In this document: piece after piece, positions 1 to 12,753 of the stretch
Numbering within the stretch: position 1 is the first letter of the stretch
How the letters are laid out: each line of letters begins with the position of its first letter
The notes under the pieces: generated by a model
The model's database searches: none
Told to the model about the DNA's origin: nothing
What the model saw: the letters and a program-made list of their open reading frames with translations, nothing else
Origin: Patescibacteria group bacterium
GTDB taxonomy: Bacteria > Patescibacteriota > Microgenomatia > UBA1400 > Chisholmbacteraceae
Reading direction: 5' to 3'
NCBI GenBank assembly: GCA_022564195.1
Contig: JADFLW010000006.1
Location: 2,474-66,473 of the forward strand
DNA: 64,000 bases
Made by a program: the position numbers and the translations under genes

Positions 1-2537
1 TTAGCAATTAATGTATCTGCTAAAGGATGCCAGTCAGTTGTATCTCTGTCTTCAAGAGCATCTATACAACCCTCTCGTAAACTTTTTAGCTCTTCGTCTT
101 CCAAATAGTTATGGAAAACCTGTTGATTCTCTAAGAAAAACTTGATTTCAGCTTGGAACTGGCCGGAGCCTAGAACAGCACTTAGTTTTTTGATCAGCTT
201 TTGTTTGGCAACTTTCTTGTGGTCTAAAGTCGAGAGAGCTTTTAGAAACGGCATGCGATCATCACCGGCTGGCTTGCTAAACGCCACATCCACCAGCTTA
301 TCGTAAAGTGGTGTTAAGTGGTTAAGTATCTCTTTGTCTTCCTGATTTGATTTGGCTACTAAATTTTCTAAATGAGCTAGGGCTTGGCTTGCATCAGCCT
401 CGAACTCATTACTAACTAAGGTGGTTAATTGCGAAATAACATCTTTGTGCAATGTATGTCCAATCTGAGTGACAGCCGTCCATTTATCGGGTAAATAGAT
501 TGCGTCGTTCCAGGGAGGTGTGGTAAAGAAGCTAGCAACATTGACGTTCTCACTAAAGCTGAAATGAAAAATTGAGCTAGCAATTCTACTTCTGACTTTT
601 GCCTGCAAGCTATGAATGAAGTTCTCCTCTTGTAACTTAGTAACTAACCCATCAAAACCGCTAGACCATGAGTGCAGCTCGAGCATTATATCAGCCATGT
701 TTATGGAAATATTTTGCTTCTCATTCGCATCTGCGGGATTAGCCAAAGCTTTTTCTGCCAGTGATAGAAGCTGCTTTTGCTTTTTCTCAGATGCGCCTTG
801 CAGATCTTTTATCAATACCTTTGAATCTGTCGTAGTTTTCAACAGTTGTAAAAACTTGTCCTCGTCTGGGCCTTTCTGGGAAGGAAGCCCTGTAAAACCA
901 GATAAATAGAGGAAATTGTCGGCATTAAAAACCACTGCATCAGTCTCGTCATGAGTGAATTTAGGAGGCAACTTCAAAAGTTCTAAATACTGTCTCTGTT
1001 CCGCTCCACTTAGTAATTCGCTTACGGTCTTGCCTTCGATTGGAGAAGGCTTCCCAGTCTTCCTAGCATCTTTCTCATGAATTGGAACTATATCAGGATG
1101 TAAAATTAATTCCTCATAGAGTGGATAAAAAAGCTCTTGGATCATCAATACTTTTGCTAGCAAGACTGGGTTCTTAAGTACTTCTTTCAAGGTCTGTAGT
1201 TCAATTGTCCTCTGTTGTTTAACAACTTCAGTGGCATTTCTCTCATTCAGGTCTATATCCCCAATCATGTAATTGATGGTGTCCAGGTTGAAGCTCAATG
1301 CGGTCAGAAATCTAGCTACTGCACGAGGGTTGCGCTCAAGGAATTTGTCTAACAAGTTGACAAGTTGTTTCTTGCCCTCTCTTCCTAAATTAGAGATATG
1401 GGCTTTTTTAATCTCACTAGCGATAAATGCTCGGAATCGGACCGGTTCAGGTGAGGGAATTAGCCAATAAACATCGAAAAGTTTCTTGAGAAATCGCCGA
1501 CCCTCTAAGACTTCCTTGCGCCTTGTTAGCTTCTCATCTATTTTGTTTTCCTCAGTATATTCAGGGTCTACATATAGTTTGCTACCTATATACTTTTCAA
1601 TCACTGTGTGGTCGCCAGTTACCACAAACGAACAATGTCGGTGACCGAAAAAGGTTGTGAGTGCATCAAGAATTTCTTTGACAACCTCAGCAGCACAACG
1701 GTCGAGGTCGTCTATAAACACCACGACTTTTCTGTGTTTTTTAAGAATGTCGTTGAATTTTTCTTTAAACTGCTCTGACGTAGTGATCTGGGAGGTAGTT
1801 CGCTTGAAGGCAAAGACGTCCTTTATCAGAAAAAGAGCGACGGGAATCAGAAGTATTTGGAAAATATTACTGCTGAATAGCAAATCTAGCGTCTCTTTAA
1901 AGTGAATGAGGTAGACTATCGATAATTCGTAGAAGCCAGTAGGCCCGATTTGTTTAACTGGGAAAGTGATAAGGTTATAGATTCCCAATAGAAATGCTAA
2001 CAAGATAAATAGGCGTAAAACTCTTCCTACCGAAACTTTTATCTGCGTGGATTCTTGATAAAGATCTGATAAGTCAACATTGCTTTTTAGGTTTTCTGCT
2101 AGCGCCTTCAAAAAAGCTCGTTTCAATGAAATTGGCTCTTGAGAATAATGCCAAGGTTGAAACCAGATTACTTTAAATCCTTTTCCACGGAGAAGGGGTC
2201 GTAGTAGCTTTAAAACCCTAGTTTTACCACTGCCCCACTTACCTGAGATGGCAAAGATTACATTCTTTTGGCCGTGCCTGGAATCAATAACATCAGCAAT
2301 TTTACGAGTATAAACTTTCCTATTTAACTTATCCTCAACATCATTTCTCTCCTCTCTTAGACCAAGTTCCTTGAGTGACTTCACAATTAGTAGCCTAATT
2401 CGTCTATTAAAGTTATTCCATTCCTTCTTAAGCCTCTTCTGCTGACTTTTATACCAACTAAAAACTTGCCCTCTGTATTTTTTGTAGAGGGCAGTCAGCT
2501 TCTTCTTTAACTGATTTACTTCTTTATCAATATTCAT
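1..2537 (-). CDS. KAP family P-loop NTPase (partial; C-terminus lies beyond the window start)
   Basis: Minus-strand ORF from ATG at 2537 running off position 1; absent from the ORF track because it is partial. Walker A GKWGSGKT, KAP-typical Walker B/hhhDDLDRC motif (VVFIDDLDRC), and two hydrophobic helices inserted in the NTPase domain (LRLFILLAFLLGIYNLI, IFQILLIPVALFLI). Confidence 0.75.
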   Translation of the reverse strand, partial: MNIDKEVNQLKKKLTALYKKYRGQVFSWYKSQQKRLKKEWNNFNRRIRLLIVKSLKELGLREERNDVEDKLNRKVYTRKIADVIDSRHGQKNVIFAISGKWGSGKTRVLKLLRPLLRGKGFKVIWFQPWHYSQEPISLKRAFLKALAENLKSNVDLSDLYQESTQIKVSVGRVLRLFILLAFLLGIYNLITFPVKQIGPTGFYELSIVYLIHFKETLDLLFSSNIFQILLIPVALFLIKDVFAFKRTTSQITTSEQFKEKFNDILKKHRKVVVFIDDLDRCAAEVVKEILDALTTFFGHRHCSFVVTGDHTVIEKYIGSKLYVDPEYTEENKIDEKLTRRKEVLEGRRFLKKLFDVYWLIPSPEPVRFRAFIASEIKKAHISNLGREGKKQLVNLLDKFLERNPRAVARFLTALSFNLDTINYMIGDIDLNERNATEVVKQQRTIELQTLKEVLKNPVLLAKVLMIQELFYPLYEELILHPDIVPIHEKDARKTGKPSPIEGKTVSELLSGAEQRQYLELLKLPPKFTHDETDAVVFNADNFLYLSGFTGLPSQKGPDEDKFLQLLKTTTDSKVLIKDLQGASEKKQKQLLSLAEKALANPADANEKQNISINMADIMLELHSWSSGFDGLVTKLQEENFIHSLQAKVRSRIASSIFHFSFSENVNVASFFTTPPWNDAIYLPDKWTAVTQIGHTLHKDVISQLTTLVSNEFEADASQALAHLENLVAKSNQEDKEILNHLTPLYDKLVDVAFSKPAGDDRMPFLKALSTLDHKKVAKQKLIKKLSAVLGSGQFQAEIKFFLENQQVFHNYLEDEELKSLREGCIDALEDRDTTDWHPLADTLIA

Positions 2538-2776
2538 CTCTCATCTCTAGTCATATTATACTCGAACTCGAAGTAAATAGTAGAAATTTTGAGGATAACA
2601 ATCTAAAAATTAACGCCGGAGAAATTCCAGAAGTAATACTTTATACCTCTCCGCCCCTAGAACCGGTTTTAGCCCCAATAGACTAGGTTCTAACGCCAGA
2701 TTTTTTCCTCAATCGGAGGCAATTATCAATAAAAAGGAGTTTGTAATTAAAAAAGATGGGTCCCTGAAACTCTTGG

Positions 2777-3454
2777 TTAATCTTCTAATTCAGATAATTG
2801 GGAGGATAGATCTCTCTCCTCCTGCTCGAGTTCTTGAGCTTCGCTATTGCCCGAGATAAACTCCTCCCATAGTATTCCTCTCCTGCTACGTATCTCTTCC
2901 AAGCGCTTCGTGATCTCTTCTCTTTGCTTTCTTCTTTGTATATACCTCTCTCCCTCTTCCTGGAGAGCTTTCTCTCTAGTCTGGATGCCCAACTTAATCC
3001 TTGGGTGCTTTCTTATCCTGTCCAAAAACTCTTTTTGCTCTGGAGATTCTTCTACCTCTGTAAACCCTTTAAAAGGTGCTTCAGGGCTATCATCTGGGGG
3101 CTCCGCATATCCTTCCCATTCTCTAAATTCTTTCCTAAAAGTATGGGCACTATTTATCAAATCACTGACATGTTCGTTATAGCTATCCCCAAAAAAAGTC
3201 GCTATGTGACGGCCAAGTAGATGGTCAGTTACACTAAACCCGACTTCATGGTTTTCGTCTTCGGGCAAATAACGAATGCCCATGGCAAACTCGTTATATA
3301 CCACCATGGTCCTTCTCAAGTGTGGTAAATTTCCTTGATATATTTCCCAGTGGTCAGCAATGTGTTGTAGGAAGGAGTCAGCCATTGAGATTACCTCTCC
3401 CCTTGTTAGGGCCTGGCTTTCACCTATTGTTTCTGGAGCTGCCATATCATTCAA
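2777..3454 (-). CDS. hypothetical protein (globular N-terminal half, E/R/K-rich coiled-coil C-terminal half)
   Basis: 225-aa ORF directly upstream of, and co-oriented with, the KAP NTPase. No recognisable motif. The 240-bp gap to the KAP start suggests a separate promoter. Confidence 0.5.
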   Translation of the reverse strand: MNDMAAPETIGESQALTRGEVISMADSFLQHIADHWEIYQGNLPHLRRTMVVYNEFAMGIRYLPEDENHEVGFSVTDHLLGRHIATFFGDSYNEHVSDLINSAHTFRKEFREWEGYAEPPDDSPEAPFKGFTEVEESPEQKEFLDRIRKHPRIKLGIQTREKALQEEGERYIQRRKQREEITKRLEEIRSRRGILWEEFISGNSEAQELEQEERDLSSQLSELED

Positions 3455-3490: not shown

Positions 3491-3506
3491 TGGCTCCCCG
3501 GGCTGG
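3491..3506. repeat. 16-nt exact copy of the 3' end of tRNA-Asn (tggctccccgggctgg)
   Basis: Identical to 3850-3865. It lies on the far side of GIY-YIG ORF 3536-3808, an att-like direct-repeat arrangement. Confidence 0.6.
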
Positions 3507-3535: not shown

Positions 3536-3808
3536 TCAGCCCGAAACATCCTTCTTCAAGACTTCAGAATTAACCAATCTTTTATATGTAAACGCTTTTC
3601 CAGATCCGGTTTTAATATAACGCTCAAAATCTTTAGCCAATTTTTTATTTTCAAAAGCACAATACCAAACAAGTTTCCAAGGAATGTAGGGCTTAGTTGC
3701 TTTTGATAGACCTTTATTGTGTTCTTTAGCTCGTTTTACTACGTCTAATGTGTATCCGTAGTAAAAATCTCTCGATTTTGAGCTGTATAGGATGTAAACG
3801 TAATACAT
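3536..3808 (-). CDS. GIY-YIG nuclease family protein (90 aa)
   Basis: YVYILYS...YYGYT...RAKEHN matches the GIY-YIG catalytic-core pattern. Confidence 0.8.
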   Translation of the reverse strand: MYYVYILYSSKSRDFYYGYTLDVVKRAKEHNKGLSKATKPYIPWKLVWYCAFENKKLAKDFERYIKTGSGKAFTYKRLVNSEVLKKDVSG

Positions 3809-3849: not shown

Positions 3850-3924
3850 TGGCTCCCCGGGCTGGACTCGAACCAGCAACCTTGAAGTTAACAGCTTCCT
3901 GCTCTACCATTGAGCTACCGGGGA
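3850..3924 (-). tRNA. tRNA-Asn (anticodon GTT)
   Basis: 75-nt cloverleaf folded by hand: acceptor tccccgg/ccgggga, D-arm gctc-aatggta-gagc, anticodon loop ctGTTaa, T-arm gctgg-ttcgagt-ccagc, CCA encoded. Confidence 0.8.
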
Positions 3925-4160
3925 TCGTTTATTCTATTTCTAAGGAATCTCCGACCAAATCCAGTTCTGAAATATTTTTCTCTCTTCCTCGCGGCTTCCA
4001 TGCTCAGGCAGGCTTCATAATAAACAAGTTTAATCGGCAATCTTTTCTTTGTAGATTTTACTTGACCCTTTTTATGTTTGTTTATCCACTTTATCAAGTC
4101 TGCTGTACTACCAATATAGAGCTTTTTGTCTGCACACAACAAAACATAAGTATATTTCAT
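3915..4160 (-). CDS. GIY-YIG nuclease family protein (81 aa)
   Basis: YVLLCADKKLYIGSTADL...KHKKG motif. Its last codons and TAG stop overlap tRNA-Asn positions 1-10. Confidence 0.75.
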   Translation of the reverse strand: MKYTYVLLCADKKLYIGSTADLIKWINKHKKGQVKSTKKRLPIKLVYYEACLSMEAARKREKYFRTGFGRRFLRNRINDPR

Positions 4161-4932: not shown

Positions 4933-5043
4933 TTCTTTAACAGTTCAAGTAAGTGAGTGCCCGCGGAGCACAACTCCTCGGCTTCAATTGTTACTAGCCC
5001 GACAGAACGCCAGACCTCTTCTCTTTGTATAATCGCTCTTAAG

Positions 5044-5541
5044 ATGAAATACGATGTTGGAATCATCTTAAGCCACTTCCATACCTGGTTCGGGTTTACC
5101 AGCAGACAAAAGAAGCGGATGGACAAGGGCATCGAACTGCTAAGAAAGGGGAAGGTGCGGTTCTTGATGACAACCGGAGGAAAGGGTGTGTTTAATCCCA
5201 CCGCACGGCCAGTGGGAGAATGGGCAAAAGACTATCTTGTCAAAAATGGAGTCAGTAAACGCAAAATCCTCGTCGAAGACAAATCGACAAGCACTGAACA
5301 AAACGCCAAGTTTGCACTAGAGATAATGAGGAAAAACAGCCTTCACTCTGCAATAGTCATCACCTCCGCTGACCATATGAGCCGGGCGCAAAGAATTTTC
5401 AAGAACGTCTTTCCCAAGAACTATAATCTGGATTTCGTTGTCTCAGACTACTTCTCCGGATTCTGGAGTGTCTGGGATTTCTTTTGGCACGCTGGCGGGT
5501 GGGTAAAATATGCAGTTGATTCGCTCCAAAGGAAGCGGTAA
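5044..5541 (+). CDS. DUF218 / YdcF-ElyC-SanA family protein
   Basis: FLMTTGGKG...STSTEQNA...VITSADHMSRAQ pattern. The ATG at 5044 is preferred over the longer track ORF start. Confidence 0.6.
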   Translation: MKYDVGIILSHFHTWFGFTSRQKKRMDKGIELLRKGKVRFLMTTGGKGVFNPTARPVGEWAKDYLVKNGVSKRKILVEDKSTSTEQNAKFALEIMRKNSLHSAIVITSADHMSRAQRIFKNVFPKNYNLDFVVSDYFSGFWSVWDFFWHAGGWVKYAVDSLQRKR

Positions 5542-5642
5542 GATCCTCCGCTTTCAAAGACGCAAAAATCCGCGAAAACATGCGAAATCGGTGGAAACAA
5601 GCGCTTTACGAGTTGTCTGAATTGGTTTGATAGAATCAAGCT

Positions 5643-10442: not shown

Positions 10443-11507
10443 ATGCTCGATAACGTAGAAAAAATCACAAAAGCGGATAAAAAGGGCGTCTTGAAGGCCA
10501 CCGAAATGCTCTGGCAGCAGTGCCAGCAGGCGTGGGATGACACAAAAGATATCGCGCTGGCTCCCAACTATCAAGATGTCAACAAAGCTATTGTTGTAGG
10601 AATGGGTGCTTCTCATCTCGGAGCTCAAGTAATCAACGCCGTCTATCAACCCTCTCTGAAAATTCCGCTCATCATCCAAAATGAATACAATGCTCCGGGC
10701 TATATCGATGATAAATCGCTAGTTATCGCCACCAGCTACTCTGGCAACACAGAAGAAACCCTCTCCTTTGCAAGTCAAGCAATAATCAGAAAGGCCAAGA
10801 TGATATGCATAAGCTCCGGAGGAAAACTAGCCGAATTTTCCAAGGAAAACAACCTCCCCAGCTACATCTTTGAGTCAAAGTTCAATCCTTCAAAGATACC
10901 AAGATATGGATCCGGATACCTTTTTATCGCCCAAATGGCGTTTCTTGCAAAAGTCGGCGCGATAAGCCTTGAACAATCCGACGTCGATACGATCATCGAT
11001 ACGCTCAAGAGTCAGAATGAGAAATACGCTCTCTCCATGGACACCACGAACAATCCTGCAAAACAGTTGGCAAAATCGTGTCTAGGCAAAGTTGTTATCC
11101 TTGTTGCATCTGAACACTTAGCAGGCTCAGCCTACATCCTTAAAAACCAGATCAACGAATCAGCCAAAAACTTCTCTGCCCTATTCAAAATCCCAGAGCT
11201 CAACCATCACCTCCTTGAAGGTCTAGCGCACCCAAGGCAAAACAAAAGGATACTTCAATTTGTGTTCTTTGAATCAAATCTGTACCACGAGCGGAATCAG
11301 ATGCGATACACAATTACAAAACAGGTCGTGACAAAGCAAGGAATCGGAATAACAAGCTTCAAACCTCAATCCCCGACAAAAATCTCACAAGCCTTTGAAA
11401 CCATCGCTTTCGGTAGCTTCACATCGCTGTATCTAAGCATCCTCAACCAGGTCGATCCAGGCCCGAATCCCTGGGTCGATTTTCTTAAGGAAAAACTGGG
11501 AAAGTGA
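10443..11507 (+). CDS. bifunctional phosphoglucose/phosphomannose isomerase (SIS domain)
   Basis: SIS-like VVGMGASHLGAQV and a second SIS half. Start moved to ATG 10443 from the 5'-extended track ORF that overlaps the upstream gene. Confidence 0.6.
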   Translation: MLDNVEKITKADKKGVLKATEMLWQQCQQAWDDTKDIALAPNYQDVNKAIVVGMGASHLGAQVINAVYQPSLKIPLIIQNEYNAPGYIDDKSLVIATSYSGNTEETLSFASQAIIRKAKMICISSGGKLAEFSKENNLPSYIFESKFNPSKIPRYGSGYLFIAQMAFLAKVGAISLEQSDVDTIIDTLKSQNEKYALSMDTTNNPAKQLAKSCLGKVVILVASEHLAGSAYILKNQINESAKNFSALFKIPELNHHLLEGLAHPRQNKRILQFVFFESNLYHERNQMRYTITKQVVTKQGIGITSFKPQSPTKISQAFETIAFGSFTSLYLSILNQVDPGPNPWVDFLKEKLGK

Positions 11508-11541
11508 ATCTTCCCGATGAAACTCAGCGGCTGTAAAGCGG

Positions 11542-12753
11542 CTAATCCAAATAGTCCTGGAGTTTCTTGCGCCTACTCGGATGTTTAAGTTTCCGAAGCG
11601 CTTTTGCCTCAATCTGTCGAATCCGTTCACGGGTAACTCCAAATCGCGACCCGACTTCCTCAAGCGTCATTGCCCGTTCTCCTGAGAGTCCAAAGCGCAT
11701 CCTCAAGACTTGAGCTTCACGAGGGGAAAGTGCCGCCAACACCTCCTCGATATTGTCTTTCAAAAACCGCTTGCTCGTCGCATCATAGGGGCTGATCTGA
11801 GAGGTATCCTCAATGAAATCACCAAGATAACTATCTTCATCATCACCAATCGGAGTCTCCAGAGAAGTCGTCCGTTGAGAAATCTTCATGATCTCCCGAA
11901 TCTTCTCGGGCAGAAGCTCCATCTCCTCCCCGATTTCCTCAGGCGTCGGCTCACGTCCCAACTCCTGCATGAGCCTGCGTTGAATGCGAATGAGTTTATT
12001 GATGGTTTCCACCATATGCACGGGAATTCTGATGGTCCGTGCCTGATCGGCAATTGCTCGAGTGATGGCCTGGCGGATCCACCAGGTGGCATAGGTGGAA
12101 AACTTGTACCCTTTTCGCCAATCGTATTTTTCAACCGCACGGATCAAACCCTTGTTCCCCTCTTGGATCAAATCCAAGAAACTCATCCCACGACCAATGT
12201 ACCGTTTGGCTATCGAGACCACGAGCCTCAAGTTCGACTGCGTCAATTTCGCCTTTGCTTCCAAATCCGCAACATCCACTTTCTGAGCCAGCTCAATCTC
12301 CTGGTCACGCGTTAAAAGCGGAATCCGTCCGATCTCCTTAAGATACATGCGCACCGGATCGGTAATCGTTTTGTCTTCAAGGGTAGAAAGGACCTCAAGC
12401 TCCTTAGCAAGCTCAGTCGTCGCCTCCTCATCCTCACGCAGCTCCCCTTCGGTAACGCTCTCAAACACATCAATACCAAGCTGAAGCAGCCGGCCGTACA
12501 GATCATCCAATTCCTCAATCCGGAGCTCTGCGTCAGGGAAAATCTCCAAGATCTCCTCCTGGGTAACGAACCCTTGATCCTGACCTTTCTTGATTAAAGG
12601 CTCAATGACCTTCTTTCGCGCATCTGCCCTGCCTACAGGTTTACCCGCCTGCCCGCCTGCCCGCCTGCCGGCGTGGCCCTTTGGCGTGGCCGCACTGGAG
12701 GGCTTCCGAGTTTTCTGTTTTGCTGGTGTTTTTGCTTTCTTTTTCACTGCCAC
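11542..12753 (-). CDS. rpoD: RNA polymerase sigma factor RpoD (sigma-70)
   Basis: Regions 1.2-4 recognisable: [29 protein letters not shown], and C-terminal [28 protein letters not shown]. Confidence 0.95.

Follow-up and report, generated by a model that had tools for sequence, protein, structure and literature searches.

The stretch of DNA considered here, referred to as the window, comprises 64,000 nucleotides of a contig from a Patescibacteria group bacterium (GenBank JADFLW010000006.1, positions 2,474 to 66,473), and its left edge cuts through a gene that, judged from its sequence, encodes a genuine KAP-family P-loop nucleoside triphosphatase (NTPase) with a predicted transmembrane hairpin inside the NTPase domain. 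By analogy with characterized relatives, the product is probably a stand-alone, membrane-anchored NTPase of a KAP subfamily found mainly in Patescibacteria (candidate phyla radiation, CPR), acting as a single-gene immune protein against phages or other mobile elements. An original prediction made from the letters of the window had described the protein as a Tmn-like transmembrane NTPase that forms a candidate defence module with an upstream partner. A defence role is plausible, given that homologues reside in restriction-modification (R-M) operons and mobile islands and that the gene itself lies in DNA of low guanine-plus-cytosine (GC) content beside a tRNA gene, but neither the assignment to Tmn nor the two-gene module withstood analysis.

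The gene (1..2537, minus strand) contributes codons 1–845 of 979 to the window. Its open frame runs on the minus strand from 2540 to the window edge, with an ATG at 2537, and a search of 5.8 billion proteins returned the full-length product, P0001, at 100% identity over 100% of the query. P0001 has 979 amino acids, is encoded on a 72.6-kb contig of a Patescibacteria group bacterium, and carries the annotation hypothetical protein IH980_02485; as originally stated, its C-terminus (134 residues) falls outside the window. The Pfam profile KAP_NTPase (PF07693), which had been suggested as a check on the family assignment, gave a clear match with E=1.7e-28 and 100.2 bits (cut-off 20) that spans residues 73–415, corresponding to profile positions 1–287 of 293. 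The motifs on which the assignment had been based were likewise found as claimed. Walker A reads GKWGSGKT (residues 99–106; 2220..2243, minus), with W101, G102, G104, and K105 invariant in 68 homologues, and Walker B reads DDLDRC (residues 276–281; 1695..1712, minus), with D276, D279, and R280 invariant in the same set and, together with the residues just before it, the sequence VVVFIDDLDRC (residues 270–281). The predicted transmembrane hairpin between them (residues ~166–195 and ~217–241; 1815..2042, minus) is indicated both by hydropathy and by helices of an AlphaFold2 model. Conserved TGDHTVIE, EGRRFLKK, and NPR motifs are also present, and the catalytic motifs are intact across the family. 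The KAP family was reportedly defined by Aravind and colleagues in 2004 by transmembrane helices that interrupt the P-loop domain in the interval from Walker A to Walker B; the window protein, with two predicted hydrophobic segments in this interval by hydropathy and AlphaFold2, agrees with that definition.

The AlphaFold2 model, built on an alignment of 68 homologues and having a mean predicted local distance difference test score (pLDDT) of 89.2, is organized into an N-terminal helix (residues 3–57), a P-loop alpha/beta core (~70–420), a helical middle region (~430–550), and an alpha-solenoid (~560–960). The long, basic N-terminal helix (2367..2531, minus) is seen in the clade of ~1000-residue proteins to which the window protein belongs and not in a sister clade of ~870-residue proteins, where Walker A starts at residues ~41–46 as compared to residue 99 in the window protein. 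The P-loop core is interrupted by modelled helices at residues 170–195, 202–222, and 224–241 that match the hydrophobic segments, and 53 of 57 family members have at least two such segments in the interval separating the Walker motifs. Since the hairpin sits between the two Walker motifs, both halves of the ATPase and the ~560-residue C-terminal helical region are predicted to be cytoplasmic. The solenoid (residues ~561–960), the start of which occupies 1..857 on the minus strand of the window, is all-helical and ARM/HEAT-like, is modelled with pLDDT above 90, and constitutes the most variable part of the protein, displaying 33–48% identity to the closest homologues as opposed to 65–70% in the NTPase core. 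A Foldseek comparison with the PDB placed the RdrA rings of RADAR (8hr8, 8fnt) at the top, with E ~3e-5 and a TM-score of ~0.24. Next in rank came HEAT/ARM proteins such as importins, CAND1, and beta-catenin, whose similarity is to the solenoid. When PDB sequences were searched with a profile of the KAP protein, designed helical repeats alone were returned, and neither this search nor Pfam detected a nuclease, protease, or other effector domain. The helical middle region is joined to the solenoid by a highly conserved loop, SGFTGLPSxKGPDE (P0001 residues 544–558; window ~864–908, minus). Only in this loop, at residues 549–554, does the pLDDT of the model drop below 50; the loop may act as a hinge, mediate an interaction, or be a target of modification.

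The case for defence comes from the family context, in which homologues repeatedly occupy recombinase-borne islands as well as R-M loci of types I, II, and IIG. Homologue loci were drawn from species-representative genomes (16), metagenomes (39), and exact look-up (4), and dereplication at 90% identity left 49. The species-representative loci stem almost entirely from CPR metagenome-assembled genomes (MAGs), covering Saccharibacteria, Parcubacteria, Peregrinibacteria, CPR3, and Paceibacterota. Among the 103 immediate neighbours of the 49 loci, the commonest Pfam families all belong to R-M systems (N6_Mtase 10, ResIII/SWI2_SNF2 9, Eco57I 8, HSDR_N 7, Methylase_S 5, N6_N4_Mtase 4), and LexA/S24 repressors, integrases, and resolvases occur as well. 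An R-M gene lies within three genes of the KAP gene at 17 of the 49 loci, a count obtained with separate references, a first clustering having joined LexA-like proteins to methyltransferases via a LexA-methyltransferase fusion. In the ~870-residue sister clade, the gene is embedded in Pfam-confirmed RadC-HsdR-HsdM-KAP-HsdS operons at six loci (L010, L028, L031, L034, L035, and L045; e.g., L035:3516-11055), all of which have the hsdM stop overlapping the KAP start by 4 nt, while hsdS overlaps the KAP end in three. This arrangement suggests that the KAP NTPase of the ~870-residue clade is functionally coupled to type I restriction; a literature search on KAP genes within type I R-M loci found nothing relevant.

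Within the ~1000-residue clade of the window protein, HsdS is encoded 7 nt upstream of KAP in L022 (49% identity), and genes for Vsr, a C5 methylase, and an HpaII-type endonuclease lie directly upstream of the KAP homologue P0008 in L069 (42% identity). L061 has its KAP gene near a serine recombinase and a helix-turn-helix gene, and L025/L062 has no such neighbours. Among the homologue loci as a whole, type II/IIG R-M genes adjoin the KAP homologue in L069, L011, and L014. The L069 genes form part of an island of ~13 kb (L069:1144-15625) that splits a Mg-chelatase (ComM-like) gene into a 413-residue N-terminal part and a 110-residue Mg_chelatase_C part; it contains the R-M genes, P0008, several small open reading frames (ORFs), and, at its end, a gene for a 557-residue serine recombinase. 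Clustering of neighbours revealed no conserved accessory gene in the ~1000-residue clade. KAP relatives were absent from IMG/VR and from INPHARED phages, as were relatives of the proposed upstream partner from IMG/VR, and plasmids carry only distant KAP/QatA domains of 24–31% identity.

Base composition sets the window copy apart from its surroundings. The window has a GC content of 0.495 (standard deviation 0.034 in 2.5-kb windows), the KAP gene, at 0.40, is its lowest point, and the 2 kb beyond the gene, read like all sequence past the window edge from the ENA contig L001, an assembly of this organism with 99.9% identity, drop to 0.36. A tRNA-Asn(GTT) gene (3850..3924, minus) marks the approximate border between this low-GC side and the core genome of ~0.5 GC, the genome level being reached to its right. 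The pattern fits a horizontally acquired segment abutting tRNA-Asn. As regards the defence-island context that had been proposed for the gene, the low-GC segment beside a tRNA gene and the islands in which homologues reside make a defence role plausible; the window itself contains no R-M homologue.

That such a protein would function in immunity is suggested by precedents within and around the family, namely PifA, EF_KAP with three metagenomic KAP proteins, and Tmn. EF_KAP and the three metagenomic proteins were validated in 2026 as single-gene systems conferring anti-phage protection of up to 6-log (PMC13552941); these NTPases have transmembrane helices and C-terminal regions without known domains, and protection by EF_KAP requires Walker B as well as the C-terminal region (PMC13552941). 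PifA, a KAP protein, excludes T7 with membrane leakage (summarised in PMC13001434). By analogy with PifA, EF_KAP, and Tmn, the solenoid would act as a sensor, either of a phage protein or of disturbed restriction. Binding or hydrolysis of NTP might next bring about oligomerization or a conformational change at the membrane, whereupon assembly of the transmembrane hairpins would perturb membrane or ion homeostasis and thereby stop the infection.

Several observations speak against this interpretation. The membrane-effector step is drawn purely by analogy, and EF_KAP has been reported not to act by abortive infection, implying that KAP mechanisms may differ between members. The PADLOC matches of the window protein are partial and confined to the P-loop region of PifA (E=1.3e-18), QatA, and PDC-S20. 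About 30 of the 49 homologue loci have no recognizable defence neighbour, many of them being short contigs. No known defence gene adjoins the window KAP gene, no R-M homologue is found in the 64 kb of the window and no R-M gene in the next 2.4 kb, and the two genes downstream of KAP in L001, encoding a DUF5677 protein (11015-11779) and a 259-residue protein without family match (11919-12698), have no PADLOC match.

For the operon-embedded sister clade, a role analogous to that of the anticodon nuclease PrrC is a serious alternative. Applied to the window protein, this explanation holds that the subfamily monitors an R-M complex and fires upon its inhibition, the window copy being orphaned or acting in trans; it is possible, albeit unlikely. 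The translational-coupling-type overlaps of the six hsdM-KAP-hsdS operons, the HsdS gene immediately preceding KAP in L022, a member of the same ~1000-residue clade as the window protein, and the adjacent type II/IIG genes mentioned above all favour it, and PrrC, embedded in EcoprrI, provides a precedent for an R-M guardian (PMC12707154). However, a position inside an R-M operon is found for the sister clade in its six type I operons, in part for L022 and L069, and not for the window copy, which is devoid of R-M genes on either side of the window edge over the range covered. Moreover, the R-M types vary between loci, a finding that general clustering in defence islands explains equally well, and ~30 of the 49 loci have no R-M neighbour. 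A broader scenario in which the mainly-CPR subfamily arose as a membrane-anchored restriction guardian is similarly tentative. Here, the gene would ancestrally have been translationally coupled between hsdM and hsdS, the C-terminal solenoid would sense interference with type I R-M or a phage protein and elicit a membrane response, and copies of the window type would have escaped the operon to become autonomous single-gene immunity.

It is less probable still that the protein is a housekeeping membrane NTPase of CPR bacteria, engaged in envelope functions, signalling, or episymbiosis without any immune role. The concentration of the subfamily in Patescibacteria MAGs would agree with such a function, as would the ordinary genes on the right-hand side of the window (HAD hydrolase, PEMT, LigT, and LytR). 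In eukaryotes, KAP proteins, Kidins220/ARMS among them, serve as scaffolds for signalling. On the other hand, the distribution of the subfamily is patchy and its context variable. An exhaustive profile search of 1.84 billion representatives recovered ~130 full-length clusters at 50% identity and 664 matches at E<=1e-30, as compared to ~30,000 for the wider KAP superfamily. The presence of family members within R-M operons and a recombinase island, the atypically low GC content, and the fast-evolving C-terminus are further arguments against a housekeeping role.

The notion that the KAP NTPase forms a two-gene defence module with the 225-residue protein encoded upstream (2777..3454, minus) is very improbable and close to refuted. 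The 225-residue protein is conserved in its own right. While one gene caller yielded a product of 175 residues (P0121), the long form is taken to be the real one since homologues conserve its N-terminal part. Its AlphaFold2 model (pLDDT 84.3) is all-helical, with long C-terminal helices at residues 151–198 and 204–224 that are consistent with the coiled-coil tail described initially, and neither Pfam, PADLOC, and NCBIfam nor a fold comparison with the PDB gave a match. Its family is very small, with 14 members among 5.8 billion proteins; a single member is annotated as Levybacteria. The window copy is devoid of a segment of ~42 residues that most homologues have between the WEGYxEPxxDxPEA and GFTTVEEFPEQKEFLD motifs (alignment A2, columns 159–203).

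In favour of a module, the two genes lie next to each other on the same strand in both the window and L001, and one homologue of the proposed partner, in L063, borders an R-M/Mrr/SocA island. Linkage, however, fails in both search directions. When five proteins of the partner family were compared by tblastn with a set of 62 loci, 57 of which carry KAP homologues, the partner was found in L001 only, so that co-occurrence is restricted to this organism, and it was missing from all 48 other dereplicated loci of the KAP subfamily. Conversely, none of seven informative contexts of partner homologues (L002, L003, L004, L063, L064, L066, and L068) contains a KAP gene. A lack of co-occurrence in other genomes is what the original prediction had named as grounds for rejecting the module. 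The neighbours there are acetyltransferase, hydrolase, and sigma-70 genes (L002), genes for a cold-shock protein and an M23 peptidase (L003), HrcA and DnaK (L004), an R-M/Mrr/SocA cluster at whose edge the homologue lies, with a Band_7 gene next (L063/L064), RuvCAB and DUF192 (L066/L067), and NUDIX (L068); L005 ends at the homologue itself. The R-M/Mrr/SocA_Panacea cluster (L063:1-6828) and the window are two of ~9 contexts in which the family borders defence-like genes, which may reflect chance or a gene flanking hotspots. The spacer between the 225-residue ORF and the KAP start measures 239 nt (2538..2776, minus), in contrast to the overlapping genes of operonic KAP homologues. Within it are a terminator-like hairpin, albeit a weak one (2630-2616), and, 18 nt ahead of the KAP ATG, a TATAAT (2560-2555). 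The 225-residue ORF is an unrelated neighbour with a conserved function of its own and probably has separate transcription.

The remaining features of the locus lie further to the right or beyond the left edge. The region of GIY-YIG and tRNA genes that had been placed after the KAP gene does exist, although it precedes that gene, being located upstream of it. Pfam identified a 90-residue GIY-YIG ORF (3536-3808, minus) and a second GIY-YIG ORF (3915-4160, minus) that abuts the other side of tRNA-Asn. An exact 16-nt direct repeat, CCAGCCCGGGGAGCCA (minus strand), present at 3491-3506 and 3850-3865 and identical to the tRNA-Asn 3′ end, brackets the 90-residue GIY-YIG gene. The arrangement resembles either a GIY-YIG mini-element that inserted at the 3′ end of the tRNA gene and duplicated its target or a decayed duplication of tRNA and GIY-YIG. 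Beyond the KAP gene, L001 contains no additional copy of the 3′ end of tRNA-Asn that would mark a larger island, and the 64-kb window contains no second KAP gene. DUF5677, encoded downstream, was considered as a partner of KAP and rejected, as it is not conserved beside KAP homologues and has no PADLOC match; the domain is listed among those enriched on recombinase-linked defence contigs (preprint, PMC12632615). The gene for the 259-residue protein likewise shows no conservation beside KAP homologues. The KAP gene in L001 contains a run of N that results in a false call of 950 residues. L001 lacks, with no run of N at the site, a segment of ~620 bp (window 4934-5553) that encodes a DUF218 protein (ORF 4957-5541, Pfam E=1.6e-22); the discrepancy stems either from an indel between strains or from the assemblies.

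If the favoured reading as single-gene immunity is correct and the protein is functional, a membrane-associated immune protein would be added to the sparse defence repertoire known from CPR/Patescibacteria, whose ultra-small genomes have few known defences other than R-M. Single-gene KAP defences as such are already known, and the window gene adds no new domain or partner to them. The points of interest are therefore the CPR host and the hsdM-KAP-hsdS operons of its relatives, the latter offering a specific arrangement in which the coupling of a KAP NTPase to type I restriction can be tested. As far as the window is concerned, the analysis serves mainly as a correction: the appropriate annotation is that of a candidate defence gene for a KAP-family transmembrane NTPase, not Tmn, and the 225-residue neighbour should be left out of any annotated system.

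Comparison with known systems begins with Tmn, to which the protein had been likened. It is highly improbable that the window protein is a bona fide Tmn, i.e., a defence protein of the YobI family of transmembrane NTPases, since the shared gross architecture (two transmembrane helices within the P-loop domain, a long ARM-like helical C-terminus, a single gene, and a variable context) is outweighed by the absence of a PADLOC match to Tmn, by a Pfam match to KAP_NTPase instead of YobI, and by the published description of Tmn as phylogenetically distinct from KAP, with no CPR among the reported hosts (PMC13001434). The PADLOC check that had been recommended returned the partial matches to PifA, QatA, and PDC-S20 and no match to a Tmn model at E<=0.1 or 0.01; a match to YobI was likewise absent from Pfam at E<=0.1, the presence of the YobI model in the Pfam copy used not being independently confirmed. 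The absence of Tmn from the PADLOC result is informative because the Tmn study itself used PADLOC for identification, so that PADLOC carries Tmn models (PMC13001434). In that study, Tmn was assigned to the YobI family, and the genomes detected by PADLOC belong to Pseudomonadota (68%), Bacillota (24%), Bacteroidota (7%), and one archaeon (PMC13001434). Set apart by profile searches and by the published description rather than by direct alignment, the window protein is not a Tmn, and the likeness is one of architecture. Both have two transmembrane helices in the P-loop domain and a variable alpha-helical, ARM-like C-terminus, and both are self-contained without a conserved operon partner. The two architectures are regarded as convergent. 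The window protein, with 979 residues, is shorter than the median of ~1270 in Tmn clade I. Tmn forms a decameric, pore-like assembly, senses RIIB through its solenoid arms, and, once a phage protein is sensed, exports Mg2+ in an ATP-dependent manner, with plasmolysis (PMC13001434).

The F-plasmid protein PifA, the KAP-family member responsible for T7 exclusion, is the best PADLOC match, located over the Walker A region, and is itself a KAP NTPase that exerts exclusion in association with the membrane. The best-scoring stretch, however, covers only profile positions ~15–106 of 720, the C-terminal regions are dissimilar, and PifA is reported to have no transmembrane helices (PMC13001434). QatA of QatABCD is a KAP-type defence ATPase that the window protein resembles in part (NCBIfam QatA, E=1.5e-17), but the 63.6 bits obtained are far from the cut-off of 600 for the equivalog, and no QatB, QatC, or QatD lies beside the window KAP gene, whose neighbours are DUF5677, the 259-residue protein, and the 225-residue ORF. 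RdrA of RADAR, the best PDB match, is similar in fold only, and no RdrB adenosine deaminase is encoded near the window KAP gene, which argues against membership in RADAR. QatA and RdrA are both soluble, in contrast to the window protein with its predicted transmembrane hairpin. PrrC, located in the type Ic EcoprrI locus, shares with the ~870-residue sister clade the position of an NTPase accessory gene within a type I R-M operon; it differs in combining an ABC-type ATPase with a tRNA nuclease, unrelated in fold and effector, and the window KAP copy resides outside any R-M locus. EF_KAP was compared with the window protein by its published description rather than by sequence. While EF_KAP is modelled with one N-terminal and one intradomain transmembrane helix and has a C-terminal region of 322 residues and a Bacillota host, the window protein has both helices between Walker A and Walker B, ~560 residues of helical bundle and solenoid, and a CPR host. 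Nevertheless, the window protein has in common with EF_KAP and the other validated KAP proteins a PF07693 match, a Walker B of the DDxDR type, NTPase-associated transmembrane helices, and a long C-terminus without known domains, and they are likewise encoded by single genes in variable contexts rich in mobile elements.

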